Shown: piece after piece, positions 24,313-48,495 of the stretch
How positions within the stretch are numbered: position 1 is the first letter of the stretch
Layout: each line of letters begins with the position of its first letter
Assembly (NCBI GenBank): GCA_965204725.1
Contig: OZ242005.1
Location: forward strand, 64,001 to 128,000
Length of the DNA stretch: 64,000 nucleotides
Origin: Candidatus Latescibacterota bacterium
GTDB lineage: Bacteria > Latescibacterota > UBA2968 > UBA8231
Reading direction: 5' to 3'
Position numbers and translations under genes: made by a program
Notes under the pieces: model-generated
The model's input: only the letters and a program-made list of their open reading frames with translations
What the model was told of the DNA's origin: nothing
Databases searched by the model: none

Positions 24313-25116
24313 TCAGGGGCCGGGGGACTCAGCGCCCAGATTGCCCTCGGCGATCACCGCCCCGGCAAATCCCTCCGCGACCATCCGCTCGGCAAATGCC
24401 TGCACCGCAGATTGGGGCAGCAGGGCGTTGTTGCTGATGATCAAATCTGCCCCCACGTGGCGGACGCCGCGCAACCCATCGAGGCTTTGCAACGCGCCGT
24501 TGCCGCTGACTTCCAAAAAGTCCCGCACCCTAGCTAAGTAGTGCAGGCCCTCTAGACTTTGCAGCGCGTCGTTGAACCAGATATCCACGCTGCCTTCGAT
24601 GGCCACGAGGTGCGACAGGTCCGTCAGCGACGCCAGCGCCTCATTGCGGACGAGCGCCAAACCCCCGCGGACCGCGGCCAAACTCTCCAGCCCTTTGAGC
24701 GAGCGCAGGGCCTTGTTTTCAAAGATCAACAGCCCTTCCACCACGTGCGCGGCTTTCCCGGCGGCCTCCGCCGGGCCTAGCCCCGCCCCGACGCTTTCCA
24801 GCCCTTCCAGCCCCGCGAGGCTTTCCAAGCGGTCGTTAAACCAAATCTCAACGCTGCCCTCAACGCGCCGCAGCCCTTCCAAGCCCGTCAGCGCGACCAA
24901 GTCGGTCCCGGCGATCTGCAAGTCGCCGTCGATTATATACGCGGCCCCCCCTCTGGCTCTCAGGGCCGCAATATCGGCCGACGACGCAATGACAACGCCT
25001 TCTTGCAGGGTGACCGGGGCCACCGGTTGCAAGATGACCGGGGCCACTGGGTCTTTGCCGCAGCCTGCCAGCGCGACGAGCAACAGCGCGATTACCCGCT
25101 CAAAAATCCCGCGCAC
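24313..25116 (-). CDS. Receptor-L-domain-like (LRR) lipoprotein
   Basis: Lipobox LAGC; repeats LxSLxGLxxLxxVxGxLxIxxN; start (GTG 25116) uncertain. Confidence 0.75.
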   Translation of the reverse strand: MRGIFERVIALLLVALAGCGKDPVAPVILQPVAPVTLQEGVVIASSADIAALRARGGAAYIIDGDLQIAGTDLVALTGLEGLRRVEGSVEIWFNDRLESLAGLEGLESVGAGLGPAEAAGKAAHVVEGLLIFENKALRSLKGLESLAAVRGGLALVRNEALASLTDLSHLVAIEGSVDIWFNDALQSLEGLHYLARVRDFLEVSGNGALQSLDGLRGVRHVGADLIISNNALLPQSAVQAFAERMVAEGFAGAVIAEGNLGAESPGP

Positions 25117-25930
25117 ACCGGAACCCAATGTCTATATCGGTTTCGAGCGGGCGATAGGCTTCCCGATTCGCTGCGGGCAGGGCCTCCTTCTCAAACCACC
25201 ACGACCCGCCCCGCAGCACCCCGAACTCGCCGCGCAACGGCCCCTGCGGATTGTCGCGGGGGCTTTCTGCGTAGTACGTGTCCCCGTACCAATCGGCGAC
25301 CCACTCCCACACATTGCCCGCCATGTCGTGTGCCCCATACGGCGACGCGCCAGCCGGGCGGCTGCCCACCGGCTCGGTCGTTCCAGCGATAAAGCGAAAG
25401 TTGGCCTCGTCGCCTGCGAGCTCGTAGCCCCAAGGATACGGGCGGCCGTCGGTTCCGCGCGCGGCCTTCTCCCACTCGGCCTCGGTCGGCAGCCGCAGGC
25501 CAGCCCACGCGCAATAGTCGATCGCGTATTGGCGGTTCACGCAGTTGATGGGATGGGTGTCGTCGGCAAAGCCGTCGTAGTTGCAGTTCGGAGCGTAGGC
25601 CGGCTCTTCGCAGGCATCGGCCTCCACGCAACGCCGATACCGCCCGACAGTGACCTCGAACTGGTCGATGTAGTACGCGGCCAGAAAAACTGGGTGCGGC
25701 GGCGCCTCGTCCGGGTCGCCGGCGTTCCAACCCATCACAAAGAGGCCCTCGGGCACGAGGACCATGGCGTGATCAACTTCGCTGATCGCGGGCGCGGCGG
25801 TGGGATCTTCAGAGGGAGGGGCCGCGCCGGATGGAGGGGGCGCGACCACGCGATCGCCGCTCGGTTGCCCGCGGTCCTTTGGGCCGCAACCCAGCGCCCA
25901 CAAGGCCATACACACCAGTGCAAAACGCAA
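25100..25930 (-). CDS. FGE-sulfatase/SUMF1-fold lipoprotein
   Basis: Lipobox ALGC; RLPTEAEWEKAARG, DMAGNVWEW, RGGSW, IGFRCA; start placed at TTG 25930 after GAGGGG. Confidence 0.85.
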   Translation of the reverse strand: MRFALVCMALWALGCGPKDRGQPSGDRVVAPPPSGAAPPSEDPTAAPAISEVDHAMVLVPEGLFVMGWNAGDPDEAPPHPVFLAAYYIDQFEVTVGRYRRCVEADACEEPAYAPNCNYDGFADDTHPINCVNRQYAIDYCAWAGLRLPTEAEWEKAARGTDGRPYPWGYELAGDEANFRFIAGTTEPVGSRPAGASPYGAHDMAGNVWEWVADWYGDTYYAESPRDNPQGPLRGEFGVLRGGSWWFEKEALPAANREAYRPLETDIDIGFRCARDF

Positions 25931-25941
25931 CGGGCAGCCCC

Positions 25942-27933
25942 TCAGAACACGACCTGCGACACGGCCTTGGAAATCAGCGCGACGGCAATGGACGTCATGC
26001 CGATTAGGCCCACGCCGCACGAGTACCCAGCCAGCACGATGGGCGCGTACGCGTACCAACGCTCGGGGCCAAAGCGCTTTTGCAAGTAGAAGCGGCCCAG
26101 CAGGGCGCCGACGAAGTTGAGGATGGCAAAGTGCGGCCAGCCGCCGAGGCCGGCGACAAAACCATAGAAGATCCCCAGCGGCGCACTCAGCGCACTCAGC
26201 AGCGCGTACAACGCGCCGCTAAAGACCAGCCCAACCCCGATGTAATCCCAGCGAATAATTTGCGTCACCAAGCTCTGGCCCGCGCCCGGCAGCGTTGACT
26301 TGGCCCAAAACGCCTGCATCGTGGCGTGGAAGGGCCACATCTTTTGCACGAATGGGTAGGCCGAGGAGGGAATCGGCCCGAGCTTCCAGATCAGCGACCA
26401 GAACAGGAAGCTACACGCGAACATGACGGCCAAGGTCAGGGCCGTCATCTTGACGATGCTGCCAAAGCGGGTGCGGGTTAGCTGGAGTTGCTTAAACACT
26501 TGCGCCTCGTAGCCCCACTGAAAGATCGGCACTGGCGCGAACCAAATCCCAGCCCCTTGGTAGCCAGACAAATAGAAGCTGGCCTCGCGCAGATAGGGGA
26601 ACGTAACGCCCTGCGGCGACCCGGTCAGGCCGATCATCCGCGTGCCGATGTACGAATAGATCGGCGTCCACACAAAGCCAAAGAGCGCGGTGATCCACCA
26701 AGGAAAATCGGGCACCAAATAGTACACCATCAGCACAAAGCCCAGCGTGCTCACCGCCCAAATTCCCAAAGCCGTGGCTATGCGGATGTCGCCGCGCTCG
26801 GGGGAGACCTCCTTGAGTGGGGCGCGCTCCTTGCCGGCCGCGAGCAAGACCTTGCCCGCCGTATAAAAGCCAATGGCCGCGACCACGATGGCCCCTCCCA
26901 GCGAAAAGCTCAGCCAGAAGTCGAAGGTATTGGCGATCTGGGTGGGAATCGACGACATGCCCGGCTCCCAAGTGTGCAGGATGCCGTAGGCATAGAGGAC
27001 GGGATTGGCGACCAAGTTCACCAAGATCGACGAGGAAAATACCCCGACTACGACCCAAAACGGCAGCACCAAGCCGAATAGCACGTGGATCAAATCCGTG
27101 GCCAAGCCGATGACTGCGGCAGGCAAAACCGCCTTGAGCGGCACTGTGAAGTCGATGAAGGGGATCGGCAAAATCGACACGGTTTCGGTCAAAAAAACCG
27201 ACGACAGCGTGGGCACCACCACGTAGAATACCCCCCACACGGCCCCGATAAAGGCCCCCGTGCTGAACACGTGCCAGCGCCAACCCTCCTGCTTGGCCGA
27301 GGTCTCGGCGAGGGCCGTCGCGCCGCCGGCCTGTACGTAGGCCATGGGAAAGGGCAAGCGCTCAATGTCGTGGGTGATGCGGAAGAGCACGTAGCCCAAC
27401 GACAGGGCATTGACGCGCTGCAGGGCAACGGCGCAGAGGAGGATGACGATGGGCTTGAGCCACGCGCCGGCGAGGAAGCTGCGCTCTAAGAGCGCGTCCG
27501 AACCCCGCGGGGGCACGACCCAAGTGGGAATGTGTTCGGCCAGCCCGTCGGCCTGGGGCGATTGGATCAGATATTGATCCCAGATCAACACGCCAAATGG
27601 GCCGCCGAACAGGTCGGCCCCCGTGCCCAGCTTGCCGCCCATGATCACCAAGCCCCCGGCCACCCAGTAGAGGATGATGATCTCTTGGGTCCGCAGGGTC
27701 ACAAAGGTGCGCTTGGCCATTTCGATAAAGAGAATCAAGGTGACCCATTCGGCACCCCCGGCCATGCTCATCCCCGTCACCAGCCCGAGGTAAATCGCGC
27801 CCGGCAGCATCACGAAGCCGACGAAGAGCGCGGCCCACAGGGTCTTTGCATTAAAGCCCGGTTCAAACGGGGCGTCGGCGGGCATAACCGCGAAGCGCTC
27901 TGGGGCGTTGGCCGACGACAAAGACAAAATCAC
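25942..27933 (-). CDS. OPT-like (oligopeptide transporter-related) membrane protein
   Basis: Many TM helices; DIERLPFPMA, PIPSSAYP; start uncertain (GTG 27933 or ATG 27885). Confidence 0.7.
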   Translation of the reverse strand: MILSLSSANAPERFAVMPADAPFEPGFNAKTLWAALFVGFVMLPGAIYLGLVTGMSMAGGAEWVTLILFIEMAKRTFVTLRTQEIIILYWVAGGLVIMGGKLGTGADLFGGPFGVLIWDQYLIQSPQADGLAEHIPTWVVPPRGSDALLERSFLAGAWLKPIVILLCAVALQRVNALSLGYVLFRITHDIERLPFPMAYVQAGGATALAETSAKQEGWRWHVFSTGAFIGAVWGVFYVVVPTLSSVFLTETVSILPIPFIDFTVPLKAVLPAAVIGLATDLIHVLFGLVLPFWVVVGVFSSSILVNLVANPVLYAYGILHTWEPGMSSIPTQIANTFDFWLSFSLGGAIVVAAIGFYTAGKVLLAAGKERAPLKEVSPERGDIRIATALGIWAVSTLGFVLMVYYLVPDFPWWITALFGFVWTPIYSYIGTRMIGLTGSPQGVTFPYLREASFYLSGYQGAGIWFAPVPIFQWGYEAQVFKQLQLTRTRFGSIVKMTALTLAVMFACSFLFWSLIWKLGPIPSSAYPFVQKMWPFHATMQAFWAKSTLPGAGQSLVTQIIRWDYIGVGLVFSGALYALLSALSAPLGIFYGFVAGLGGWPHFAILNFVGALLGRFYLQKRFGPERWYAYAPIVLAGYSCGVGLIGMTSIAVALISKAVSQVVF

Positions 27934-27946
27934 TCCCCTCGCTTGC

Positions 27947-29599
27947 TCAGTTCTGCACCGACTCGTCGGCCAAGTACCGCAGGTGCTCTTCATACACCTC
28001 AATCTGCGCGGCGTATTTTTCGTGCAAATCCCGCAGGTAGCGATTGAAGAACGCCCGCTCGACGCGCTCCCGCACATCCCGCACCACCGCATTCCGCACC
28101 CTCTCAAGGTCTAGGCCGTGATAAATCTCTGGGTATCGTGCGATCACCCGGAAGATCGAATAGCCTCCTCTCGTTTGGATCGGCCCTTGGAGTTGGTCTA
28201 ACTCGGCGTTCATCACCGCGTTCATCCAAGCCTCCCCCAAAAAGGGGGCCTGTGACTCGGAGACGTATAGGAGACCATCTTCGGCGTTGCGGCGGCGACT
28301 GTGGGCGCGAGCCAGCGCCGACCACTCGGCCCCCGCCTCAATCTGCGCGGCGATTTGTCGCGCCTCGCTTGGGGTTTCGAGCAAAATCTCCTCTAATTGG
28401 GCGTGGGGCGGGCTGCGGAAGCGGCGCTTGTGCTCCTCGTAGAAGGCCCGTAGCTCGTCCTCGGTCGGCTCGGGGGCCTCTGTCAAAATTTGCTCGCGCA
28501 GCTTTATCAACATCAAGTTGCCCAACGCCAAAGCATGAGACCGCGCAAAAGCCTCGGTTTTATCGAGGCCCTTGCGCCGAGCGTCGTGGGCCATCAGGCG
28601 GGTGGGGAAGTGGTTCTCCGATAGTTTCTCGTTGACCGCGTCGGCGCTGGCTTCCGGCCACCGTTGGCCCGAGGGCCGCACGGCCTCTACGACCTCGGCC
28701 ACATCCATAAGCAAGCCCTCAAAAGCATAGACCGGCTGCTGGCGCTGCGCCTCGTCCAAGTCGGCATAGTCTAACGCGCCCTGTAAGACAGCTACGACCA
28801 CATCCATGCCCTCGGCGTCAAACACCGTGTCCAAATCCCACTTGAGGTGCCGCAGGTACGATTCGCGCAGTTGCTTTTGCTGCTCGTCGCGCAGTGCTTG
28901 GCGGATGCCTTCCTCGACCTCGGCCAAATCAACGCGGTCGCGCTCGGCCACCTTGGCGATGACGAATCCTCCGTGCAAGGGGAGCGGCTCGGTCACGCCG
29001 CCGACGGGCAGGGCGAAAACGGCTTGGGCTAGGTCGCGGGGGCTGTCGAAGGGCGAATAGGCCAGCCGCCGGATTTCGCCGGTGTGCATGCCGTAGTAAG
29101 GGTCGGCCGCGAATTGACGACCGGCTTCCGCAAAGTCCGCGCCCTGCGCCAAAAGCCCTTGCACCTGCCGCGCCTGCTGCCGACTGGGGACAAAAATCTC
29201 CAGCGCGACGACTTTTTCTCCCCACCCCGGCCGCGTGTAGGCCGCTGCGACGTCGTCCTCATCAACCGCGACCTTGGCCGCGACATTGCGCTGCATCATC
29301 ACGTCGGCGAGGGCCTTGGTTTCGCGCTGGGCGAGTTCGGCCAAGACCGCTTCATCGCGCTGCAACCCCCGGTGGTTGGCCTCCAAAAGCAATACCTCGC
29401 GGTCTATGAGCGTCTGCAAGTTGGCCCGGTGCTGGGCGCGCTGGGCCGCCGTTTTGAGGCTGTTCTCGAAAGTGTGCAGATCGGCCACGGTAATTTCGAC
29501 CTCCCCGACCTGAGCCAGCAGCGAGGCGTTGTCCGGCCGCTCGTCGCCGCAGCCAATACAGGCTCCGACTAGCAGGCAGGCTAACGGCAATTTGTGCAT
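27947..29599 (-). CDS. Parvulin-type peptidyl-prolyl isomerase / SurA-PrsA-like lipoprotein with two PPIase-like modules
   Basis: Lipobox CIGC; LQTLIDREVLL, GADFAEAG, GAEWSALARAHS, GPIQTRGGYSIF. Confidence 0.78.
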   Translation of the reverse strand: MHKLPLACLLVGACIGCGDERPDNASLLAQVGEVEITVADLHTFENSLKTAAQRAQHRANLQTLIDREVLLLEANHRGLQRDEAVLAELAQRETKALADVMMQRNVAAKVAVDEDDVAAAYTRPGWGEKVVALEIFVPSRQQARQVQGLLAQGADFAEAGRQFAADPYYGMHTGEIRRLAYSPFDSPRDLAQAVFALPVGGVTEPLPLHGGFVIAKVAERDRVDLAEVEEGIRQALRDEQQKQLRESYLRHLKWDLDTVFDAEGMDVVVAVLQGALDYADLDEAQRQQPVYAFEGLLMDVAEVVEAVRPSGQRWPEASADAVNEKLSENHFPTRLMAHDARRKGLDKTEAFARSHALALGNLMLIKLREQILTEAPEPTEDELRAFYEEHKRRFRSPPHAQLEEILLETPSEARQIAAQIEAGAEWSALARAHSRRRNAEDGLLYVSESQAPFLGEAWMNAVMNAELDQLQGPIQTRGGYSIFRVIARYPEIYHGLDLERVRNAVVRDVRERVERAFFNRYLRDLHEKYAAQIEVYEEHLRYLADESVQN

Positions 29600-29675
29600 A
29601 AAAAGAGGAGCTAGACGGAAGGTCCAGCTCCTCGCAACGAGCCATCCTGCCATACGCGCTACCAGTGCCGGGGCC

Positions 29676-30443
29676 TCAACTCGTCCCATCCGCTGGGGCT
29701 TTTTCCCTCGTGCCTTGGTCCACTGCAAAGCGGAACTCGACGTCGATGGTCTCTTCGGGGTTGCCGCTGGCGTCGAACGAAAGCACAAATTCGCGGAAGG
29801 TCAGCAGCAATTCGTCGTTTTCTGGCAGCAACGGGTCGAAAACCAACATGCCTTTTTGGCTGCTATCGCGGAAGATGGGGCGATGGCGGTGAAAAACCGT
29901 CTTGTAGATAATGCCCATGCGCTCCAAGTTGATTTCGCGCTCATTGCCCGAAGTTCCCAGCTCCATTTTGTAGTACTTGGTGAAGCTGTTGGCCCCCAAC
30001 ACGATGGCCCCCTCGCGCCCGGGATCGTAGTAGCGATAGGTCTCGCCGCCCGATTCCATGGTCGCCTTGGCCGGGTCGAATTCAATTTTGGCATAGGTCA
30101 GGTTTACGACCTCGACCTCAAAGACTGTGAACTGCGGCGGGATATAGCCCTTTTCGGGATCAATAGTGCCCCGGGTGTAGGGGTTCACGTGGCGACCGTC
30201 GTACAGGGGCGGGAAGCGCTCGTTGAGCTCGGGGTCGCTCAGATGCCGCACCTTGATCAAAAGCCCCTCTTTGCTAAATACCATCGAGCTGTCGTCCGGG
30301 TCGATGGTGTAATCGCCGCGGCCCTCGGGCAGGACGGGCATCACGTGTAGATCGTACACGCGCTGCGGCGGAATTAGCCCGCCGCAGCTCCAGACTAGCC
30401 CGAGCGCCACGAAGCCGAGGAGCACCATGTACCTCGTTCTCAT
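29676..30443 (-). CDS. Uncharacterised lipoprotein (paralog of 41472-42254)
   Basis: Lipobox VWSC; GGGAG RBS; shared motifs with paralog. Confidence 0.78.
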   Translation of the reverse strand: MRTRYMVLLGFVALGLVWSCGGLIPPQRVYDLHVMPVLPEGRGDYTIDPDDSSMVFSKEGLLIKVRHLSDPELNERFPPLYDGRHVNPYTRGTIDPEKGYIPPQFTVFEVEVVNLTYAKIEFDPAKATMESGGETYRYYDPGREGAIVLGANSFTKYYKMELGTSGNEREINLERMGIIYKTVFHRHRPIFRDSSQKGMLVFDPLLPENDELLLTFREFVLSFDASGNPEETIDVEFRFAVDQGTREKAPADGTS

Positions 30444-30478
30444 AAATGCAACTCCCTTTTTGCTCGTTCTCGTTGTTG

Positions 30479-30898
30479 TCACTGGGTTGGTTCCTCGGTT
30501 TCAACGTCGATCTGCTCGACGCCGGCCATGGTGGCCGTTTCCATTGCGTCAATGATATGGCCGTGTGCTGCATCGGCGTCCGCGGTGATGATCAACGTCG
30601 CTGAGCCGGTGCGGACCTTCTCGCGCTCTAGCCAGCTTGCGAGCTGGCCCATGGCCACGAGCTGCCCGTTGATTTCGAGCTGGCCCTCGCTCGAGATGCG
30701 TAGGTTCAGCTTCTTCTCGGACTTGAGCTGGTCGTAGTGAACCGAGTCGGGCAACTCAATTTTGAGCTGAGTCGCCTTGACAAAGACCGTGGTGGTCATA
30801 AAGAAGATCAGGAGCAGGAACACCGCGTCTATCATCGGCGTCAGGTTCAGTTCAAATTCGCCGGCCTTGTCGGCCAGCGACTGTCTCCGTTTAGCCAT
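30479..30898 (-). CDS. exbD: ExbD/TolR family protein
   Basis: LNLTPMIDAVFLLLIFFM with conserved Asp; ADADAAHG. Confidence 0.92.
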   Translation of the reverse strand: MAKRRQSLADKAGEFELNLTPMIDAVFLLLIFFMTTTVFVKATQLKIELPDSVHYDQLKSEKKLNLRISSEGQLEINGQLVAMGQLASWLEREKVRTGSATLIITADADAAHGHIIDAMETATMAGVEQIDVETEEPTQ

Positions 30899-30903
30899 GA
30901 CGC

Positions 30904-31323
30904 TTATCCTTCTCCGCTCTTGGCAAAGGCAATGGCTTCAATGCCCTCGCCGCGGGCGATGTCCATGACCTGCACCACGTAGGCGTGTGGCACGGAGCGC
31001 GCGGACTCCAGGATCACGTTCTTGGTGTTGTCGGCTGCGATGACCTGACGGATCTTTTCCGCCAACCGCGCCTTGTCGGTGATCTCGCCGTTGACTTGGA
31101 TCGTCTGATCCGGGTCAATCACGATGTTCATGTCCTTGGTCGCTCTCGACTCGCCTTCGCCGCCCGGCAGATCGACGCTCAGGCCCTTGGGGTTGACGAA
31201 AGTGGTCGCCACCATAAAGAAAACCAACAGCAAGAACATGCAGTTGATGAGCGGAGTCAGGTCTGGATTCTCCGAGGTCTTGAAGGCACTTTGGCCGAAC
31301 CCGCTCTTTCGTCGCTGCCGCAT
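30904..31323 (-). CDS. exbD: ExbD/TolR family protein (TM Asp replaced by Asn)
   Basis: PDLTPLINCMFLLLVFFMV; VVQVMD. Confidence 0.88.
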   Translation of the reverse strand: MRQRRKSGFGQSAFKTSENPDLTPLINCMFLLLVFFMVATTFVNPKGLSVDLPGGEGESRATKDMNIVIDPDQTIQVNGEITDKARLAEKIRQVIAADNTKNVILESARSVPHAYVVQVMDIARGEGIEAIAFAKSGEG

Positions 31324-31341
31324 CGCAGGGCCTCTTTCTGC

Positions 31342-32016
31342 CTAGCTAGCCTCTTGTTGGCTGGCCTGAAAGCGCACCAGCAGGGTGTTGGCGAAGGCGT
31401 GGCAGTACAGCTCCACGCTCTTAAAGACCTTTTCCGCCCGCCCGGAGAGGTAGCGGTGGAAAACGATGGTCGGAATGGCGACGATGAGGCCACTGGCCGT
31501 CGTAATTAGGGCCTCGGAGATGCCGCTGGCCACGGCCGCCGGATCGCCGGCCCCGGCGCGCGCAATGGCGTCAAAGGCGTGAATCATGCCCATGATCGTC
31601 CCCAACAACCCCATCAGCGGGGAAAGGACGCCAATGGTGCCGAGCGCGTTGAGCAGGCGGCCGAGGTACATCTCGCCGGCTTCCTCCGTCGCCAAGATCA
31701 ACTCTTGGCGCATGTCCTCTAAGTCGGTGCGATTTTCCAGCACCAAGGTATCGTAGCGCTTGACCAAGGCGGCGAAGATGAAGTTGAGGACGCCGCTGCC
31801 CTGCCGGAACAGCTCGATGGCCCCGCCTTCGCCTTGGTTTTTGAGCACGTCCTCGGCCTCGTTGAGCTGCTGCTCGGCCTCCTGTTCGCCCGGGACCATC
31901 AGCAGCCGCCACAGCCGTTCGATGATGATGGCCAGAGCGATCAGCAAGCAGAGCAACATGGGCCACATCATAGGGCCGCCTTTGAAAAACTGGTCAACTA
32001 AAAAATTCTGCTCCAT
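31342..32016 (-). CDS. exbB: MotA/TolQ/ExbB proton channel protein
   Basis: KGGPMMWPM, PLMGLLGTIMGMI, GISEALITTASGLIVAIP; GGAGG RBS before ATG 32016. Confidence 0.93.
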   Translation of the reverse strand: MEQNFLVDQFFKGGPMMWPMLLCLLIALAIIIERLWRLLMVPGEQEAEQQLNEAEDVLKNQGEGGAIELFRQGSGVLNFIFAALVKRYDTLVLENRTDLEDMRQELILATEEAGEMYLGRLLNALGTIGVLSPLMGLLGTIMGMIHAFDAIARAGAGDPAAVASGISEALITTASGLIVAIPTIVFHRYLSGRAEKVFKSVELYCHAFANTLLVRFQASQQEAS

Positions 32017-32056
32017 TACAAACAACCTCCCGGTATTGCGTTGCGTTGAAAGCTCG

Positions 32057-35329: not shown

Positions 35330-35346
35330 GGTGTCAATCTCCTCGG

Positions 35347-38268: not shown

Positions 38269-38320
38269 GGCAGTTATCCTCATGCAGTGTAGAGATTCGG
38301 TCTTCTGTCGCCATTCCAAC

Positions 38321-39181: not shown

Positions 39182-40823
39182 AAGTGCCTCGGCGCGCCTT
39201 GCCGCTTTCTTCTATCCCAACCTCGTACAGATAGAGCCCCGGCTCGACGACGCGACCGCTGCTATCGCGGCCGTCCCACTCAAACTGATAGGTGCGGGCG
39301 CTGCCAGTTTGCGCCAACTGGCGAATTGGCCGGCCGGTCAAATTGTAAATTTTTAGCACCACTTCCCGGCCCGCTTCGATGTTGCCGACGACCAAGGCAA
39401 AGCGCGCATACTCGTCGGCAAACGGCGAGAACGGGCGCGGCTGCACCTGCACTTGGCTCAAAAGCTGCAACGGCGTCCCCGCTGCCAGTACCGTCCACGT
39501 GGTGCCCGGCTTTTCTCGCCCCTGCTGCCAGTTCACGTACCCGTCGCGGTCGCCTTGGGCCTTGTTGCCCGCGGCAAAGCGCAGGGCGGTCTTGTCGCGC
39601 ACAAAGAGTGCCGGCCCCTCAATTTCGACCGTGGCCAGCGCGTTGATCCGCTCGTTGGGGGCCAGCTCTACCCGCATCCCCTCCCGGTCTGACGTCGGCC
39701 CCCAAGTGTAGCCGACGCCGGGCGCGAGTTCTCGGCCATCGACGCGCACGACCGTTACGCTGAGCAAGGGGCCTTGGACTCGTAAGAGATCGACCCCGTA
39801 ATCATCGACGCCCGCCGCGATTTCCACTCGGCAGCTCAGGGGCACTTCCTCGCCCTTGCGCAGGGAATCGGACGCGACCACCTCGGCCCAGATCTGTTGG
39901 GCGACCAAGACGGGGTCGTAGTCAACGGCGATGCGCTTGAGCACCGGGCTGACAAAGGGGGCCGAGTTCGTCAGGCGGGCGCGGTATGCCAGCCGCTCGA
40001 CCGGCTCGTCCCCGCTGTAGAAAAATTCTCCGACCGCGTGTGCTGCAACGCTTTCCCAAGGCTCCTCAACGCCCTCGGCCGGGACGCCGCGCACCTGCAA
40101 CTCAATACCCGTGCGCTCCGGGCGGTCCGCTTGCCAGCGAATCTGCCCTACGTTGACCGGCAGGTTCGGAGCGAAGCTATCCTCTATAAAGCCTTCGTTG
40201 CCGTAGCCCACGCCGAACACTTCGATTTCTCCGATGGCGACCCAGTTGCTGCGGTCTTGGCGGATGAGCGTCAGCCGCACGAAGCGCCCCGCGCGCGGGA
40301 TGGCCTCACCGCGCTCGTCGGTCGCGGCCCAAGTAGAATCCGCGCTCGTATCTACATTGAGGACGAAATTGTCCGGCTGTTCCGCCAAGAGCTGCCAGAC
40401 TTGCGGCGCCGCTTGGGTGGCGGTTTCGAGCCTGTACCCGCGCACGAAGTACTCGGGCTGGTTCAGCGCGGTCTCACCGGCGAGCACCCGCACCCGCTTG
40501 ATCGCCCGGTCCAGCCCGAGATCGACTGTAAACTGCTTGTCGAACACGTGGTTGGTGCCCGAGATCCACTCGCTCCGCACGAGGTCAATCGCGCCGTCCG
40601 TTAGGGGCACGGGCTTGTCAAAATCGTCTATCACCGATCGTCCTAAGGCCACGTTTACACCTTCGTCCAACTGCGCCAGTATGACGAGGCTATCGGGATG
40701 CACCTGTACGCCTTGGGTCGCTCCCAAGGCAAATGTCTCGACCGCGTCCACCACCCAAGTCTTTAATTCGGCACGACACGGAATGAATGAAAGCAACAGC
40801 AAAAGTGCGCCCAGCCTCAGCAC
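39165..40823 (-). CDS. Exported protein with discoidin-like N-terminal domain and C-terminal FlgD-Ig (T9SS-CTD-like) domain
   Basis: FTVDLG, IGEIEVFG; PRPFSPF...IYNLTGRPIRQL...WDGRDSSGRVVEPGLYLY. Confidence 0.75.
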   Translation of the reverse strand: MLRLGALLLLLSFIPCRAELKTWVVDAVETFALGATQGVQVHPDSLVILAQLDEGVNVALGRSVIDDFDKPVPLTDGAIDLVRSEWISGTNHVFDKQFTVDLGLDRAIKRVRVLAGETALNQPEYFVRGYRLETATQAAPQVWQLLAEQPDNFVLNVDTSADSTWAATDERGEAIPRAGRFVRLTLIRQDRSNWVAIGEIEVFGVGYGNEGFIEDSFAPNLPVNVGQIRWQADRPERTGIELQVRGVPAEGVEEPWESVAAHAVGEFFYSGDEPVERLAYRARLTNSAPFVSPVLKRIAVDYDPVLVAQQIWAEVVASDSLRKGEEVPLSCRVEIAAGVDDYGVDLLRVQGPLLSVTVVRVDGRELAPGVGYTWGPTSDREGMRVELAPNERINALATVEIEGPALFVRDKTALRFAAGNKAQGDRDGYVNWQQGREKPGTTWTVLAAGTPLQLLSQVQVQPRPFSPFADEYARFALVVGNIEAGREVVLKIYNLTGRPIRQLAQTGSARTYQFEWDGRDSSGRVVEPGLYLYEVGIEESGKARRGTFVVAY

Positions 40824-40824
40824 T

Positions 40825-41475
40825 TCAGAATAGCAATCGCTGGGTCAGGCTGGTCACCACCGCGATGGCGAGCGCCTCCTCCAACTCCCTCGAGTTGAAG
40901 GTCATGACAATGCCGGCATCCACCGGGCTTTTCTTGCTCACTTTGCCAGTCTTGAGATCCTTCACTGAGACCTCGACCTGCACCCGTTGCGTTTGCGGCG
41001 AGAATACTTTGCGCACCCGCTGACTGGTGATCACAGCCGTGCCGCTGATTTCCAAGTCGGCCTCGTCCGAGTCCTCGGCCACGAGCGCAAAGGGATTGCT
41101 CACTTGCCGCACGCTGTCTTCGTCGAGCACCTCAACCCGATCGGTCTGCATAAAGACCCGCACCCGCTGCTTGCGAAGTTCGCGCAACAAGGCCCCGGAC
41201 AAATCCTCAATGCGCGAGGGCCGAGTAATCTGCAACAGCCTATTTCCGTGGCTGGCGAGGGCGTTCGTGCTGTAATGAGCTCCTTGATCCGCAACCGAAT
41301 TGGCACTCCGCGGATCGATCACATTGGCTTTGCTCTCCACCGGGAATTCCTTGACGTATATTTTGACCGGCATCGCCGGCGGGTTGGTCAAACTGGTGTC
41401 CTTGAGTGCCTCGTACTTCAAGGAGCAGGCTGTCGCGCCGACGAGCAGCATCGCGCCGACATATATCTTTTTCAT
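40825..41475 (-). CDS. Uncharacterised lipoprotein
   Basis: Lipobox ATAC; overlaps upstream stop. Confidence 0.75.
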   Translation of the reverse strand: MKKIYVGAMLLVGATACSLKYEALKDTSLTNPPAMPVKIYVKEFPVESKANVIDPRSANSVADQGAHYSTNALASHGNRLLQITRPSRIEDLSGALLRELRKQRVRVFMQTDRVEVLDEDSVRQVSNPFALVAEDSDEADLEISGTAVITSQRVRKVFSPQTQRVQVEVSVKDLKTGKVSKKSPVDAGIVMTFNSRELEEALAIAVVTSLTQRLLF

Positions 41476-42254
41476 TGGCTATTCTCCACCCAACGCACGC
41501 CGTGATCGACATTGAAGTGGAACTTCAGGTCGGTAAATTCCGTTGGATTGCCGTACCCCACTTGAAAGCGATCAAAGGCCAGAATGAAGTCGTTTACTTC
41601 GAGGGTGAACGACCCAACCTCTGCGGGCAGCGGCGGAAAGGTCAGCTTGCCGCTGTATATGGAGCCTTTGCGCACGGGCTTTTCCCGGCTGTACTCGCTT
41701 CGGCTCCAGATCGGGTCGCGGTCCAAGCTAGCGTGATACCTCACATTGCCTTCTTGCCCGCCCCACTTCAAATAGGAATAGTCGAAGAACTCGTCTTGGT
41801 CGTACCAATTGCCCGCCCCTTGGCGGCAGAGCAGGCGGCGGCCGTCGTCCAAGCGCAGAATGGCCTGCGTGGGATCGAGCTCCACCCGCTCCCGAGTGCG
41901 GTTGATCACGGTCACGTCAAAAACGGTCCACAGCGGCGGCGTATAATCCAACCCGGGGATTTCAACGCCCGTGAGCGTATAGGGCGTGAAGCGGGTGCCG
42001 TATTCGGCGTCGAGCATGGCATCGTCGTAGAACTGGACCTTGACTTGCACCCCTTGCTCGCTCCACACGACCGAGCTGTCGATGGGATCGATGTAATAGG
42101 TATCCCCAGCGGGCAGGACCGGCTCCAGCTCGATGACGTACTCGCGCTGGGCCTGCGATTCGAGGGAGCGGAGGGTCGCGCATCCCCCGGCGGCCAACGC
42201 CACGCACAGCAGGACGCGAAGGTGTTTTGCGATGGGTGTCATCTGCGTTCGCAT
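41472..42254 (-). CDS. Uncharacterised lipoprotein (paralog of 29676-30443)
   Basis: Lipobox AGGC; IDPIDSS, TVFDVTVINRT, FNVDHG. Confidence 0.78.
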   Translation of the reverse strand: MRTQMTPIAKHLRVLLCVALAAGGCATLRSLESQAQREYVIELEPVLPAGDTYYIDPIDSSVVWSEQGVQVKVQFYDDAMLDAEYGTRFTPYTLTGVEIPGLDYTPPLWTVFDVTVINRTRERVELDPTQAILRLDDGRRLLCRQGAGNWYDQDEFFDYSYLKWGGQEGNVRYHASLDRDPIWSRSEYSREKPVRKGSIYSGKLTFPPLPAEVGSFTLEVNDFILAFDRFQVGYGNPTEFTDLKFHFNVDHGVRWVENSQ

Positions 42255-42256
42255 CG

Positions 42257-45226
42257 TTAGAAGGGGGATATCAGCTCCACGAAGAGGATGCCTTGCTTGG
42301 AATCGGGCCGCCCTGCATGGCTAAAGTCGCGCCGCGTGCGCTGATAGCCGAAGAATATCGAATTGTCGCGGATGCCAAAGTAGTCTGCGGTGATGCTCAG
42401 CATGGCTAGATAATCGGTCTGGCTGTACGTCTCGTCCTCAAAGGCGCGATCCCAGTGCTTAAACGGCAGCAAGGGCAGCCCTTGGACGCCCAACTGAAAG
42501 CTGGTCTTGGGCGTGAGCTTGTACCGCCCCATGACGATGGGGATGAAGTCGCTGTACGATTTTCGCGGCCCCTCTTCGCTATCGACCTGCTCAAAGATCG
42601 TCCGATGCTTGAGCTTGGGCGTGATGCTGAAGGCACCCCAGCTATGGGTATAGTCGATCTTGTTGATAATGGAAAAGCGCGAGCGCACGTCTTGGGGCTG
42701 CAACAGCCCGCTGCCGTCTTTGAGCTCAATTTCGGCTTGACTGTTGCGCTGCCACAGGAAGCCGTTTTCAATGTTGAAGCCGCGAAAGCCCTGATAGGTG
42801 CTGTCGAAAAAGAGGAGATGCACAAAGCTGTCGCGCATCAACAACTCGTCCGGCGTTGCTGGCCGCCAAAAGCCGGCGCGTTCGGGCGGGCCGTCCGGCT
42901 CGTTAAACCAGCTAATGACCTCTATATCGTCAATGGGCACTTGGTACACGTACGTGTGATCCGGGATGTCGTCTTTGACCTGCTTGGCGTCGAAATTGAT
43001 TTTCAGGGCGCCGACGCCGCGCTTTTCCACCGAGTATGCGTAGCGGAAGTACATCCCCTCGGACTTACCCGGGCCGGCGATCTGGCTGTTGTCGTAGCGG
43101 CCTATGCTAATGAACTCGCCCCAGCGCCCCAAGCGGTCGTAGCGGAGGAAGATGTGATTGCCCCTTTGGTCGCGCGGGTAGGGGTAGTCTGGCTTATCGT
43201 CGTTTTCGCGGAAGTCGGGCACGTTGTTGTTGTTGAAGTCGATGCCATAGACAAATTCGGGCGGCTCTGAATCGTAGGTCAGAAACGCCTCTTCCCAATC
43301 GACGATGAAGTTTTCGTTGCGGTCCATGTCCGGGATGTTATCGACGTTCTCGTCGAGGCCCGGATACACTTGGGCATTAGGAAAGCCCGGATATAGCGTA
43401 CGCGGCTCGGCGACAGCCGTATCACTAACGTGTTCGTCGGGGAAACGGTCGTGATCGTCGTTGTCCTCGTGGAGGGGAAACTCCTCGGTGACCATAGCGA
43501 CTCTCTCGCCGGGCGCAGGCTGTCCATCGTAGTGGAAGGCCATGCCGCCGCGGTAGCTGTCGTACCCGCCACCGTAGTCGGGCTCCATGCGGTAGATCTC
43601 GCCACCCACTGCCAAGCCGCCGACTATATCCTTGACGCCCTTGAGCCACCACGCCAAGGCGCGTTCACTACTGCGCTCGCCCTCGTTATTGCCGATCGGG
43701 AACATGAAATTTTGCAGGTTGTGCGCCACTTCGCCGCTGACTTCCAGCCCTACCAAATCGACCTGATAGTTGATCGAGGCCAAGCTCTGCCCGGTGGGAA
43801 TGCCGTAGTCAAAAGACACCATCCGCCGGTTGGCACCCGTGCCGTCGCTGCCATCAGCGCGGACGATGGTGTAGTAGAGTTCCTCGTCTTCGTCTGTGTA
43901 CCACTTGAACGGACGCCTTATGGCTCGCTCACCGGCACTGGCGATGGGGGCGGGCCAAGCTGACTCAGTGATCGTCGCGTTGCGTTGGCGATTGATACTG
44001 AAAAAGTCGTGGGTCTGGCTGACGCCGATCCGGTAGTCGCCGGCCACATCGGCGACAAAACGCGCCGAGCGCACCGTTACTTCCGGCGGAAGGACGAAGG
44101 TGTACACCACCGGCACCTTACCCTCGGCCTCGCGCCCGCCGCCCGCTTGGAAGGCCCCACCTTCGGGCGGCCCGGCTTCTATGGACGGATCGTAGTCCGG
44201 GTCGTCGTCGAGGCTGGTCAGGCGCACCGGCTCTCCGTTGCGCTCGCCTTCAAGGACGATGTCCACGCCATAGACTAGGGCATTGGCTCGGGCGTCGTCG
44301 GGCGAGTCGTCGGCCACAAAGACGCGAATGGTCTTGGGGCCAAGCATCTCATAGGGTAAGTCGCCGCGCCAAGCACTGGTGCGCGACACCGCTGGCGAAG
44401 CCATAATCTGGTTGACCAGCGTCCCGCCAACGCTGGCGAAGCTACCTACTTCGTGCTGCCAGTGGCCGCCAAAGAGCAGCACCGGTGAGTTGTCCCAAGC
44501 GTCGTCGCCTTCTTGGCCAATCGCCCATTTGGAGAATAGCTGGGCACCGGAGTGATCGCCGCCGCGCGAGTAGAGGAGCGTCGCCCGGTCGCGCTCCTTG
44601 TAGTTGATGTCCATGCGCAACGCACTCATCTTGCTGTTGACCAGTGTGAGCGGCGTGAAGATGGTACGAATATCCGTAGCACCGCCTTGTGTGCCCACGT
44701 TGCCCAATGTGGCGGTCCAGTGCAAATCCTTGTGCGTGTAGTGGCCGACCCGAAACGCCCGATACTTGTGGTCAATGTAGCTATACCCACTAAAGTCGTT
44801 GCCGCTGCGCGACTCTTCTATCGTCAGGAGCCGCCGATAGCCGCTGCCCATGTAGTTACCCATCCGATCCCAACCCACATTGCGGGTTTTCAGAGGACGC
44901 CCCGAAGGGGTGGCCCAAGGAACCGTCTCGCGCTCGTACGCAATGTACTTTTCGTCGGCGTAGTTGAGATAGGGGACATTGACTGCGGCGTTGAGGAAGG
45001 CCCTCCCTAGCCCTCGGTCATAGCGATCTTGGGGACCGCGCAGGAAGGGAGGGCGCTTTTTCCACGGGGGATCCTTTGGAGTACCGGGAGAAGGATCGTA
45101 ATAGGGCAGCGGGCCAGCAGATTCGGGGTGGCGCTGCGCCTCCGTCGGCGCGGACAATCCAGTACCAACCAGTGCGGACAAGACCACCCAGCACTTAACC
45201 ACACGGCATTTTAGAAAACACAGCAT
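42257..45226 (-). CDS. Uncharacterised ~989 aa exported protein, putative outer-membrane barrel (paralog of 35347-38268)
   Basis: Signal ending TEA; terminal Phe (LFVELISPF); many motifs shared with paralog; start moved to ATG 45226. Confidence 0.7.
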   Translation of the reverse strand: MLCFLKCRVVKCWVVLSALVGTGLSAPTEAQRHPESAGPLPYYDPSPGTPKDPPWKKRPPFLRGPQDRYDRGLGRAFLNAAVNVPYLNYADEKYIAYERETVPWATPSGRPLKTRNVGWDRMGNYMGSGYRRLLTIEESRSGNDFSGYSYIDHKYRAFRVGHYTHKDLHWTATLGNVGTQGGATDIRTIFTPLTLVNSKMSALRMDINYKERDRATLLYSRGGDHSGAQLFSKWAIGQEGDDAWDNSPVLLFGGHWQHEVGSFASVGGTLVNQIMASPAVSRTSAWRGDLPYEMLGPKTIRVFVADDSPDDARANALVYGVDIVLEGERNGEPVRLTSLDDDPDYDPSIEAGPPEGGAFQAGGGREAEGKVPVVYTFVLPPEVTVRSARFVADVAGDYRIGVSQTHDFFSINRQRNATITESAWPAPIASAGERAIRRPFKWYTDEDEELYYTIVRADGSDGTGANRRMVSFDYGIPTGQSLASINYQVDLVGLEVSGEVAHNLQNFMFPIGNNEGERSSERALAWWLKGVKDIVGGLAVGGEIYRMEPDYGGGYDSYRGGMAFHYDGQPAPGERVAMVTEEFPLHEDNDDHDRFPDEHVSDTAVAEPRTLYPGFPNAQVYPGLDENVDNIPDMDRNENFIVDWEEAFLTYDSEPPEFVYGIDFNNNNVPDFRENDDKPDYPYPRDQRGNHIFLRYDRLGRWGEFISIGRYDNSQIAGPGKSEGMYFRYAYSVEKRGVGALKINFDAKQVKDDIPDHTYVYQVPIDDIEVISWFNEPDGPPERAGFWRPATPDELLMRDSFVHLLFFDSTYQGFRGFNIENGFLWQRNSQAEIELKDGSGLLQPQDVRSRFSIINKIDYTHSWGAFSITPKLKHRTIFEQVDSEEGPRKSYSDFIPIVMGRYKLTPKTSFQLGVQGLPLLPFKHWDRAFEDETYSQTDYLAMLSITADYFGIRDNSIFFGYQRTRRDFSHAGRPDSKQGILFVELISPF

Positions 45227-45311
45227 GAAAACCCCTCGCGGGTCACTTACGTATTGAGCAACTGAAAAGCAACGGGCGAAAACATAGGCTTGCCAAATCT
45301 CGCGGGTCAAG

Positions 45312-45350
45312 AAAAAAAAACGGGAAGCAGGCGTCAAGCCCACTTCCCGT
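45312..45350 (-). terminator. Intrinsic terminator after the CBM9-like gene
   Basis: acgggaag...cttcccgt stem followed by a T run on the minus strand. Confidence 0.75.
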
Positions 45351-45379
45351 CTTTGTATAACCTATCCAAAGGCCATTGA

Positions 45380-46336
45380 CTACTGGATGAAGGTCTCCTT
45401 TACGCGGCCCCAAGAATCTTCCTCGACCGAGGTGCCTCCTTGCGGGCCAGCCGGGTCATCCACAAAGACCCAGTTGGCGAACTCGGACTGGTTACCACCC
45501 GCCCAAGCCACGCACTGGATCTGGCCACCATAGGCGTCTTCGCCATCGGCGTCAACCAACAGCCAAGTGAAGCCCATCTCAGAACCAGCAGTGGGGGCTT
45601 CAAAGAGGTTGCCATTGCGCAGGAAGGTATCCCACTCCATCCGTCCCTCGATCACGTAGTCGGCATCGCCTTCGTCGCCAAACTCATCGCCGGCGTCACG
45701 GAAGCCATACTCAAAACCCTCAATTGCGTCGGGGTCGTGGACGTCCACGCGCTGGTTCTGCACGGTGGTGATGTAGCAGACGGACAGTTCGTTCGAGCCA
45801 AAAGGCACGGCCATGAAGTTGACCACATTCAGGTTGACGTACTCGCTGGTCGGGTCACCACCGGGGTGATCTTCGTTGTTCAGGTCGAGGTAAAGAGACA
45901 TGCTGTCGCGCTCCCACCAAGCCCGGGCCTCACCGCCGCCCTCAGTGTCGCGGACGTTATCGCTAACCTCGGTAATGTAGTACAGGGCATCGTCGTCCCA
46001 TGCCTGCAAAATCACCGAAGAGACATCGGCGTCAGTGCGGCCTTCACCAGCTACTTCGGTCTCGCCGTTTTCGTTAAGCTGGTTGGTGCTGACTTCACTG
46101 GACTGCTGCTCGATATTGCGCCAGCCATACTCTTGACCGTCGAGCTGAATTTGGCTCGGCGAGCAGTTGAATTCCAGCGCACCAGCCCACTCGTCAGCAA
46201 CGGTTTCGCGGTCGCCATCGAGCGTGGGGGGCTGGGTGAACTTGGGCAAGTCGAAGTAACGCACCGGTGGCTGGGCACTGGCTAGCGTCGTAAAACAAAG
46301 GGCCGCAATAGCGACCAAAAGAGTCAACTTCTTCAT
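45380..46336 (-). CDS. Exported CBM9/DOMON-like protein with C-terminal SWGxxK motif
   Basis: Signal ending ASA; PTLDG, AWDDDALY, WERDSMSLYLD, YVIEGRM; ends TSVEEDSWGRVKETFIQ; AAGGAG RBS. Confidence 0.7.
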   Translation of the reverse strand: MKKLTLLVAIAALCFTTLASAQPPVRYFDLPKFTQPPTLDGDRETVADEWAGALEFNCSPSQIQLDGQEYGWRNIEQQSSEVSTNQLNENGETEVAGEGRTDADVSSVILQAWDDDALYYITEVSDNVRDTEGGGEARAWWERDSMSLYLDLNNEDHPGGDPTSEYVNLNVVNFMAVPFGSNELSVCYITTVQNQRVDVHDPDAIEGFEYGFRDAGDEFGDEGDADYVIEGRMEWDTFLRNGNLFEAPTAGSEMGFTWLLVDADGEDAYGGQIQCVAWAGGNQSEFANWVFVDDPAGPQGGTSVEEDSWGRVKETFIQ

Positions 46337-46385
46337 TACTGCATCTCCTTAGCTGTGAGAAGTGGACGAAAAATTTGAATGGTGC

Positions 46386-46414
46386 ATAATAAATTCTCGC
46401 CAAAAGGCTGTCAA
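46386..46414 (-). promoter_or_regulatory. Sigma70-like promoter heading the envelope locus
   Basis: TTGACA-17 bp-TATTAT on the minus strand, about 50 nt above the ATG at 46336. Confidence 0.65.
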
Positions 46415-46498
46415 GAAAAAAGTTGCTCTACTAGCCCCTTCTACATTCGTCTGCGCCCCCTATCGTTTGTAGCCAATAAGGCCAGCGGGGGGCGGTAA

Positions 46499-48461: not shown

Positions 48462-48495
48462 CCGTTATTCTAAGCAAGAGGGATAGGAGGTTGCT

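Follow-up and report, generated by a model that had tools for sequence, protein, structure and literature searches.

The 64,000-nucleotide stretch analysed here (the window: positions 64,001 to 128,000 of contig OZ242005.1, assembly GCA_965204725.1) belongs to the genome of a Latescibacterota bacterium, which is 5.43 Mb long, lies in 2 contigs and is 94% complete; coordinates below are window positions unless they carry the prefix C1. The window contains a run of 16 open reading frames (ORFs), g01 to g16, all on the minus strand and spanning positions 46336 to 24313, in which one ExbB and two ExbD genes lie among genes for two very large outer-membrane barrels, a tetratricopeptide repeat (TPR) protein and several lipoproteins. 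Motors of the ExbBD or TolQR type are known to power only a handful of outer-membrane processes.

A sequence-only reading had described this run as 16 co-oriented, mostly abutting genes behind a TTGACA-17-TATTAT promoter, and the ORFs, the gaps between them and the promoter match bear that description out. With gene starts chosen as those that yield signal peptides or lipoboxes, the gaps from g01 to g16 measure 153, 2, -4, 1, -17, 52, 17, 40, 18, 5, 35, 76, 61, 32 and -29 nt. The clustering is far beyond chance, and the gene order persists in other genomes down to about 50% identity. Promoter-like sites number 4 between 44800 and 47700, against 1.1 ± 1.0 in shuffled sequences. Because hairpins followed by T-runs lie after g01 and g12, the run may comprise more than one transcript, and g01, g02-g12 and g13-g16 may be partly separate transcription units. 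The features of the run are the following:

46386-46414, minus strand: sigma-70-like promoter, TTGACA-17-TATTAT, matching at 11 of 12 positions
45380-46336, minus strand: g01, secreted CBM9-like protein of 318 amino acids (aa) with a Sec signal peptide (CBM9_1, E 1.4e-9)
45316-45354, minus strand: 17-bp hairpin and T-run, 3' of g01
45310-45281, minus strand: promoter-like TTGACC-18-TATGTT, 3' of the g01 hairpin
42257-45226, minus strand: g02, giant outer-membrane barrel 1, 989 aa, ending in F
41472-42254, minus strand: g03, lipoprotein lipoA copy 1, with an invariant lipobox Cys
40825-41475, minus strand: g04, lipoprotein lipoB, kept only in orthologous loci
39165-40823, minus strand: g05, candidate surface protein with a discoidin-like N-terminal part and a C-terminal domain of the kind found in type IX secretion systems (T9SS) (FlgD_ig, E 1e-6; CHU_C, E 0.003)
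38321-39181, minus strand: g06, small barrel of the PorV/PorQ/PorP kind (NF033709, E 4.9e-11, 42.8 bits against a cut-off of 90)
35347-38268, minus strand: g07, giant outer-membrane barrel 2, 973 aa, with an AlphaFold2 model
32057-35329, minus strand: g08, 1090-aa TPR protein with an N-terminal hydrophobic helix (TPR families)
31342-32016, minus strand: g09, ExbB/TolQ-type proton channel (PF01618, MotA_ExbB, E 5.7e-29)
30904-31323, minus strand: g10, ExbD/TolR paralog 1 (PF02472, E 4.2e-26), with Asn in place of the transmembrane Asp
30479-30898, minus strand: g11, ExbD/TolR paralog 2 (PF02472, E 6.2e-29), with the transmembrane Asp kept
29676-30443, minus strand: g12, lipoprotein lipoA copy 2, a predicted immunoglobulin-like (Ig-like) beta-sandwich (AlphaFold2 predicted local distance difference test, pLDDT, 88.1), with an invariant Cys
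29605-29633, minus strand: 12-bp hairpin and T-run, 3' of g12
27947-29599, minus strand: g13, SurA/PrsA-like peptidyl-prolyl isomerase (PPIase) lipoprotein with two parvulin domains (Rotamase_2, E 5e-24; PrsA/CBF2 in PDB)
25942-27885, minus strand: g14, polytopic inner-membrane permease, OPT-like by its homologues (these come with a precomputed PF03169 match and are named 'peptide transporter' at source)
25100-25909, minus strand: g15, FGE-sulfatase-fold lipoprotein (PF03781, E 4e-52; GldK model 79 bits against a cut-off of 350)
24313-25128, minus strand: g16, leucine-rich repeat (LRR)-like lipoprotein (weak Recep_L and LRR matches)

Lipoboxes are present in g03, g04, g13, g15 and g16, and the cluster contains three paralogous pairs: g02 and g07 (36% identity over 989 aa), g03 and g12 (34%), and g10 and g11 (27%). 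No family in Pfam or NCBIfam matches g02, g03, g04, g07, g12 or g14. The domain names proposed from sequence alone mostly held (CBM9, FlgD_ig, TPR, ExbB, two ExbD, PPIase and the lipoproteins); the PorV-like matches are below cut-off, and g14, which had been called an OPT-like permease, has no Pfam match of its own and earns that description through its homologues only.

Giant barrels and their partners in the cluster

Predicted structure and sequence together set g02 and g07 apart as a family of their own among very large outer-membrane barrels. The AlphaFold2 model of g07, built from a 38-sequence alignment (A1) that has g02 among its members, has a mean pLDDT of 73.3 and a predicted template modelling score (pTM) of 0.73, and consists almost wholly of beta structure, with some 30 long strands. 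Foldseek matches it to SlpA of Deinococcus (E 1.2e-9 to 7.6e-9), MtrB (1.5e-8) and SprA (8.9e-6), with TonB-dependent transporters and LptD appearing at E of at least 1e-4 (the transporters at E ≥ 1.2e-4 and TM ≤ 0.23); since the template modelling (TM) scores of all these matches lie between 0.13 and 0.23, the likeness is that of a 'large barrel' only. A search independent of Foldseek (VIA) also places SlpA first (Z 13.7, root-mean-square deviation 9.2, 395 residues), and porins crowd at Z 10-12. At the sequence level, neither g02 nor g07 matches Plug (PF07715), TonB_dep_Rec (PF00593), SprA_N or SLH in Pfam at E ≤ 0.01, and Plug was not found in four homologues of the barrels at E ≤ 1, while the same model finds 20 genes elsewhere in the genome. 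SlpA_C scores 22.7 and 25.1 bits on two of the four homologues, below its cut-off of 35, and a barrel profile run against PDB sequences found no solved relative (best E 0.98). The possibility that the large proteins were TonB-dependent receptors, SprA or soluble enzymes can thus be set aside, given that no such domain matches and that the models are giant barrels.

The family is small, with only 752 representatives at E ≤ 1e-3 among 1.84 billion sequences; the g07 homologues carry Latescibacteria or Latescibacterota labels and are all annotated 'hypothetical'. Among the 38 paralogs of this genome, column identity is about 0.4-0.5 in the strands and rises to 0.64-0.69 in an N-terminal segment of about 70 residues and to 0.70-0.81 in an acidic, Asp/Asn-rich segment that resembles calcium-binding repeats. 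Both conserved segments largely coincide with low-confidence parts of the g07 model, and they stand out as candidate contacts with shared partners.

The motor proteins are clear members of their Pfam families and fall well short of the NCBIfam equivalog cut-offs (TolQ 86.9 against 221 bits for g09; TolR 57.2 and 60.0 against 127.3 for the two ExbD proteins). The substitution in g10 (LINC) is found in the window and in most of the close relatives shown, and LIDC occurs in L024, L055 and distant families. The TPR protein g08 matches the YbgF-type TPR model TIGR02795 in six stretches at 221 bits, against a cut-off of 90.1, and its N-terminal helix is conserved. The lipoA model of g12 finds its best fold matches in YcdA/YjhA-type sandwiches (Z 8.8 and 7.9; best Foldseek E 4.9e-3), its matches in the Atlas are to unnamed clusters only, and the lipoA profile found nothing better than E 0.9 among PDB sequences. 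A TonB-like or LptE-like fold was considered for lipoA and rejected, as the model matches generic Ig-like sandwiches only.

Over its whole length the surface-protein candidate g05 shares 34% identity with a paralog bearing F5_F8_type_C, and its C-terminal domain scores 29 bits on FlgD_ig (cut-off 27), 16 on TIGR04183 (cut-off 23) and 18.1 on CHU_C (cut-off 27). A paralog of g06 at L069, a second locus of this kind described below, reaches 77.8 bits on PorV_fam and also matches PorP/SprF; g06 and g14 themselves have no match among PDB sequences. The permease is 85-97% identical in the 19 orthologous loci that hold it, except in L016, L017 and L027 (77-79%), and is the best-conserved gene in most loci, barrel 2 being about 60% identical in the more distant of the same 19. 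As a side observation, g14 and the DUF6785/DUF6784 permease encoded at 19828-21732 (minus strand) resemble each other weakly over a local stretch that includes an ERLxFP motif (26% over 116 aa, pairwise E 7e-4).

Conservation of the core and its copies in the genome

That these genes are conserved together as one system, as the sequence-only reading supposed, is supported by synteny. Relatives of g07 led to 63 fetched loci. In 18 of them g01-g12 follow the order of the window, and 14 more hold truncated parts of it in the same order, giving 32 related loci; the other 31 are paralogous mini-clusters, such as C-terminal-domain protein-barrel-TPR-lipoA, or three barrels-TPR-lipoA-CBM9-like. ExbB-ExbD-ExbD lies inside the stretch from the TPR gene to the second lipoA gene in 22 of the 24 loci that span it. 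Ten further stretches were fetched around lipoA matches, eight of them from families other than that of the window. Five of the ten, all from other families (L090, L092, L093, L094 and L097), carry barrel(s)-TPR-ExbB-ExbD-ExbD-lipoA, often preceded by a PorV-like barrel and a C-terminal-domain protein, and the order is kept even though barrels and lipoA of these distant families share only 22-37% identity. Of the rest, L098 and L099, from the window's own family, have barrel-TPR-lipoA and no motor, L091 has lipoA-PorV-like-TPR-ExbB-ExbD, with PorV-like barrels and no giant barrel, and L095 and L096 have neither TPR nor motor. The conserved core of the system is a PorV-like barrel, one or two giant barrels, a TPR protein of about 1,090 aa, ExbB, two ExbD proteins and lipoA.

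In a sample of 81 genomes across the phylum, each at least 80% complete, barrels occur in 45 and lipoA in 44, in the same families, and both are absent from families f2, f3 and f7 (36 genomes); the one discordant genome is 89% complete. Several distant genomes have a single lipoA gene, adjoining the motor, and many barrels (20 barrel matches and one lipoA in G003, for example). The idea that lipoA is a one-to-one plug of the barrel was rejected, because many genomes have one lipoA and 8-20 barrels; the single copy of lipoA beside so many barrels argues instead that it belongs to a shared energising module.

The same disproportion holds within the genome of the window, which has 38 barrel paralogs in 30 loci and only three ExbB loci. 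The run is therefore not a lone machine: of some 30 paralogous barrel loci it alone bears a motor, and the other 29 have none. The genome also holds 26 matches to the PPIase lipoprotein and 19 to g05 (the query included in each) and 13 to lipoA. Twelve other barrel loci were scanned and their 158 crudely called ORFs clustered into families. The recurrent unit consists of a CBM9-like protein of about 310 aa, one to four F5/8-type-C proteins with FlgD-Ig/CHU_C tails, one or two barrels, a PPIase lipoprotein and sometimes lipoA. The ~310-aa proteins that recur in these loci (family F3, which includes the CBM9_1-positive copy of L069) are related to g01, which itself falls outside family F3 at the thresholds used. 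A DUF6785/DUF6784 permease is found in 4 of the 12 scanned loci, as a DUF6785 permease is near the cluster of the window, and the 158 ORFs also include two peptidases (M20 and M19), sugar-acid-type enzymes and GDSL esterases. FG-GAP/ASPIC (UnbV) genes, often paired with TPR genes, are frequent near barrel loci as well (family F4, 7 members in the 12 loci; in the window, for example, 54181-56280 and 58190-60469).

The other two ExbB loci of the genome are informative in different ways. One, at C1:3.17 Mb, is a canonical motor operon, TPR-ExbB-ExbD-ExbD-TonB, in a genome with 20 Plug-domain receptors and two TonB_C matches (C1:3.17 Mb and C1:2.46 Mb); compared with the order of this operon, the DUF4159 genes that adjoin ExbD2 in related clusters (described below) occupy the place of TonB. 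The other, L069 (C1:243318-251800), has no giant barrel and reads CBM9-like-lipoA-PorV-like-TPR (1081 aa)-ExbB-single ExbD-DUF4159, the layout also seen in L091, which comes from another family.

A candidate transducer, a proposed mechanism and its rivals

The sequence-only reading recognised no TonB in the cluster. This is correct in that none of the 16 proteins matches TonB_C, and incomplete in that a protein with a TonB-like layout, a candidate for that role, is encoded outside the run, in a divergent unit with the following genes:

51044-52072, plus strand: u342, secreted protein of no known family and first gene of the divergent unit, adjoining the DUF4159 gene (20 related loci, 32-93% identity)
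52424-53638, plus strand: DUF4159 protein of TonB-like layout, candidate force transducer (PF13709, E 1.6e-9)
53669-54601, plus strand: HEAT-repeat lipoprotein, 3' of the DUF4159 gene (kept in L030, L031 and L042)

In DUF4159 proteins of this kind a cytoplasmic N-terminus is followed by one transmembrane helix, then by a basic Pro-rich linker with the motif K-R-x-P-R-L/M-T-K-P-F-E-F-R/K-K, and finally by a globular C-terminal DUF4159 domain, whose only sequence relative in the PDB is an uncharacterised protein (4i66, E 6.5e-20). The helix carries a His in 12 of 16 ORFs read from related loci and in 6 of the 8 copies in the genome, usually with a Ser four residues before it, the spacing seen in the TonB of this genome; L069 is among the loci with the His, and the paralog at C1:28414 has Asn at that position. 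The gene lies between ExbD2 and lipoA, with the His present, in three of the five distant motor clusters (L092, L094 with two copies, and L097), and between TPR and lipoA in L098, L099, L062, L064, L066 and L068; comparing the listed rows by eye, we counted at least 20 directly adjacent DUF4159-lipoA pairs in 16 genomes. All 81 genomes of the sample have DUF4159, with 1-2 copies in those without barrels and 2-33 in those with them. These layouts and neighbourhoods make the DUF4159 protein a candidate TonB-like transducer belonging to the system. A predicted complex of its C-terminal end (residues 160-404) with lipoA (21-255) scored 0.00 and 0.00 against a mark of 0.32, which speaks neither for nor against binding.

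Upstream of the CBM9-like gene, 1.2-1.7 kb away, 16 loci carry the u342-DUF4159-HEAT unit in divergent orientation. In the window this distance has grown to 6.1 kb through an insertion of about 4.6 kb (about 46420-51040) that is absent from the 16 related loci; within it are an ankyrin-repeat lipoprotein gene (49167-50411), two small coiled-coil genes and two ORFs of no family (47637-48461 and 48496-48885). By its position, the DUF4159 gene has been relocated in the lineage of the window. In that lineage the Asn-for-Asp change in ExbD1 coincides with a His-less DUF4159 copy, and more distant relatives keep both residues. The small coiled-coil genes, which have a C-terminal membrane helix, occur in three copies that flank the insert (46499-46870 and 46935-47261 on the minus strand, 52069-52392 on the plus strand) and are also found in L008 and L029; the first copy has tandem ASVDSR(F/I) repeats, and these genes give weak matches to XhlA and DUF7310.

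On the other side of the run, the sequence-only reading had the same strand continue with DUF6785 permease, M28-FtsX, manA (PMI) and SDR genes; these do share the strand, but two plus-strand NHL-repeat genes (22017-24310) stand in between. The M28 gene (11994-16616, minus strand) encodes a 1540-aa protein in which PA and M28 peptidase domains are fused to an FtsX-like permease domain, and the window as a whole is rich in eukaryote-like repeat proteins of the LRR, NHL, ankyrin and HEAT kinds (857-2449, 22017-24310, 49167-50411 and 53669-54601).

Our preferred explanation, to which we would give slightly less than an even chance, is that the cluster is the motor-bearing core of a TonB-like, proton-motive-force-driven import system that is specific to the Latescibacterota and has different outer-membrane parts. 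ExbB and an ExbD1/ExbD2 heterodimer would turn proton flow into force, and the DUF4159 protein, anchored by its TonB-like helix, would convey this force through the periplasm by way of its basic Pro-rich linker, with the TPR protein and lipoA providing a scaffold for the contact. From that point on the steps are inference. The force would gate the giant barrels, probably through the N-terminal segment of about 70 residues and the acidic Asp/Asn-rich segment. At the surface, substrate would be captured by lectin-like proteins, the CBM9-like protein and the discoidin-type proteins with T9SS C-terminal domains, held there by PorV/PorP-like barrels. Large glycosylated or peptide substrates would then pass inwards to the SurA-like lipoprotein and on to the OPT-like or DUF6785 permeases, making the whole a functional analogue of SusC/SusD or TonB-dependent uptake loci. 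Import is favoured because one motor is accompanied by many barrels, because the surface proteins are lectin-like and non-enzymatic, because permeases are co-located, and because a separate export route is present in the genome (SprA at C1:3035234; PorV and PorU at C1:346157-350497). The genome has at least 51 matches to C-terminal domains, and the proteins that bear them would most simply be cargo of its ordinary T9SS, held at the surface by a neighbouring PorV/PorP-like barrel; pairs of a cargo and a dedicated barrel are known, PMC9143113 describing type B C-terminal-domain proteins with PorP/SprF.

Several observations weigh against this explanation. In the window itself, the DUF4159 copy lacks the helix His and lies outside the operon, and ExbD1 lacks the transmembrane Asp. 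The topology of g08 is ambiguous, because no positive residue precedes its helix. Among the relatives, L016 and L017 pass from TPR to the second lipoA without motor genes between, and the position between ExbD2 and lipoA holds no DUF4159 gene in L090 or L093. No glycoside hydrolase was found among the 158 crudely called ORFs of the scanned loci, unlike classical polysaccharide-utilisation loci. The PPIase, the permease, g04 and g15-g16 were not found by tblastn in the distant-family stretches, and neither was g01, for which tblastn at E 1e-4 may miss diverged CBM9-like genes; g13-g16, g04 and, by tblastn, g01 thus appear to stand outside the phylum-wide core, either as additions of the window's lineage or because they have diverged too far. 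Finally, the Foldseek matches of g07 all have the low TM-scores given above, and the lumen of the model may be open or plugged.

A bolder version of the import proposal, possible but distinctly less probable, is that these proteins make up a third class of energised outer-membrane transporter, beside TonB-dependent transporters and the T9SS, in which plug-less barrels of about 30 strands are gated by DUF4159 on ExbB-ExbD1/ExbD2 through TPR and lipoA. On this view each of the roughly 30 loci in a genome would have its own lectin-like proteins and SurA-like receiver and would import whole glycopeptides, or unfolded polypeptides, whose size exceeds what a 22-strand transporter can pass; together the loci would be to this phylum what polysaccharide-utilisation loci are to others.

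Of the other explanations, the one that survives best, although we consider it unlikely, is a T9SS-like platform for secretion or surface display, in which the giant barrels would serve the C-terminal-domain proteins encoded nearby as translocons or anchors. The PorV-like barrel would take the part of the carrier and the TPR protein would correspond to SprE/PorW, the PPIase to the translocon PPI and the FGE lipoprotein to GldK, with ExbBD replacing GldLM. Each part does have its counterpart in the extended translocon of SprA, PorV, PPI and the TPR lipoprotein SprE plus motor, as set out in PMC10994853; g08 scores 116 bits on PorW/SprE, g15 and g06 have the GldK and PorV_fam scores listed above, SprA is among the fold matches of g07, and the cargo-barrel pairs just mentioned provide a precedent. 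All of these model scores, however, are below the curated cut-offs (250 for PorW/SprE, 350 for GldK and 90 for PorV), and 38 translocons in one genome would be without precedent. The absence of a recognisable T9SS motor would also speak for this platform: GldL, GldM and GldN were not found in the genome, in searches that had no positive control, so that their absence is not established, GldK in the genome is far below cut-off, and GldM_1st was found in 0 of the 81 genomes, again without a positive control. If the absence is real, the T9SS of the phylum has an unknown motor. That our cluster supplies this motor is made less likely by the distribution of SprA. This protein, single-copy in 78 of the 81 genomes, is present in all 36 genomes of families f2, f3 and f7 as well, so that T9SS export does not need a system that these families lack.

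Still less probable is outer-membrane tethering or remodelling of the Tol-Pal kind, in which the large barrels would be plentiful structural proteins in the manner of SlpA. The best-scoring model is TolQ for ExbB and TolR for both ExbD proteins, the YbgF/CpoB-type TPR units of g08 score far above their cut-off (a match at domain level only), and SlpA is the best fold match of g07, with the weak SlpA_C scores on two homologues. Classical Tol-Pal may moreover be missing, since TolB_N was not found in this 94% complete genome with a model that was positive in the controls, E. coli and Caulobacter. But the motor proteins fall far short of the TolQ and TolR equivalog cut-offs, no OmpA-family (Pal) match was found among the 16 proteins and no SLH domain in the cluster, the system is absent from 36 of the 81 genomes, unlike a housekeeping envelope function, and 30 barrel loci with variable lectin-like proteins suggest diversity of substrates.

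Gliding, or propulsion of adhesins, of the Agl-Glt type, with a TolQR-like motor moving the lectin-like proteins as adhesins, seems very unlikely. One ExbB with two ExbD proteins, large TPR proteins, outer-membrane barrels and adhesin-like surface proteins would suit it, a weak GltC match (E 0.0016) was found, and the authors of PMC12204202 suggest a role in gliding for their motor-linked transducers; yet no Glt or Agl family reaches its cut-off, the cluster has no cytoplasmic track or regulator genes, and the permease and the PPIase have no place in such a model. Least probable is mere adjacency of a canonical Ton or Tol motor to unrelated outer-membrane protein genes, to which the motor-less L016 and L017 and the 29 motor-less barrel loci could be appealed, since the gene order persists across families at such low barrel and lipoA identity, the phyletic patterns of barrels and lipoA match, and the genome has a separate canonical Ton operon and its Plug receptors elsewhere.

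Of the original proposal of a new outer-membrane system spanning both membranes, the conserved set of motor and barrels and the new barrel family stand, and the direction may be import or secretion, the former being preferred here.

Comparison with known systems

The likeness to Ton and SusCD systems is one of plan. Both combine an ExbB and ExbD motor with a transducer, here a candidate with a His-bearing helix, a Pro/Lys-rich linker and a globular end; in both, few motors serve many paralogous barrels that are encoded beside surface binding proteins, and the genome's own canonical Ton operon has the same gene order as the cluster. The parts differ. The cluster has no TonB_C, Plug or TonB_dep_Rec, its barrels have about 30 strands instead of 22, and its transducer candidate ends in DUF4159; lipoA, the giant TPR protein and the PorV-like barrel are extra, obligatory components, and the surface proteins bear T9SS C-terminal domains in place of the SusD type of lipoprotein. 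A Fibrobacter cluster, TPR-OmpA-ExbB-ExbD-ExbD-TonB, was considered as a case of the same system and rejected, as it has the canonical Ton arrangement of the FCB group (Fibrobacteres, Chlorobi and Bacteroidetes), as described in PMC6851124.

Giant barrel, small PorV-type barrel, prolyl isomerase, TPR protein, proton-driven motor, FGE-fold lipoprotein and C-terminal sorting domains all have counterparts in the T9SS as described in PMC10994853, and the likeness amounts to a true parallel in function. The differences are scores below the curated T9SS cut-offs, a motor of the ExbBD type and barrels in many copies, while the genome's SprA, PorU and PorV are encoded elsewhere. SlpA, MtrB and LptD have in common with g02 and g07 the very large barrel fold, and a lipoprotein gene beside a barrel gene recalls LptD-LptE; the barrels of the cluster, however, have neither SLH nor a solved sequence relative, and lipoA is not one-to-one with them.

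The closest arrangement is found in a 2025 survey (PMC12204202), which describes a class of clusters with the order TPR-tolQ-tolR-tolR-transducer and proposes non-TonB transducers with a vWA-fold end, their function and outer-membrane partner being left unnamed. The genes g08-g09-g10-g11 have this very order (TPR, tolQ-like and two tolR-like), and the DUF4159 proteins similarly combine a TonB-like helix and linker with a different globular end, beside an uncharacterised, co-occurring TPR gene. A transducer gene next to the motor, with the His, is found in L092, L094 and L097, while the copy of the window is His-less and lies 6.1 kb upstream in the divergent unit. DUF4159 is not named in the main text of that survey, and its end may or may not share the vWA fold. 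Where our cluster differs is that partners are identifiable, namely the giant barrels, lipoA and the PorV-like barrel.

We found no published description of the barrel family, of lipoA or of the cluster in the literature searched; passages of the 2015 Latescibacteria genome paper (PMC4454575) report generic porins and TonB transport only. The cluster belongs with the motor-driven, Ton/Tol-like trans-envelope systems, and the families of its outer-membrane components are undescribed. It offers concrete and conserved candidate targets for orphan motors and transducers, in the form of the giant barrels, the Ig-like lipoA and the PorV-like barrel, and because these candidates are tied to about 30 loci per genome that resemble nutrient-capture units, the role of such orphan motors becomes testable. 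If the proposed energised import is true, it would explain how an abundant uncultured phylum acquires large substrates, with a motor arranged as in Ton systems and an outer-membrane side made of other parts.

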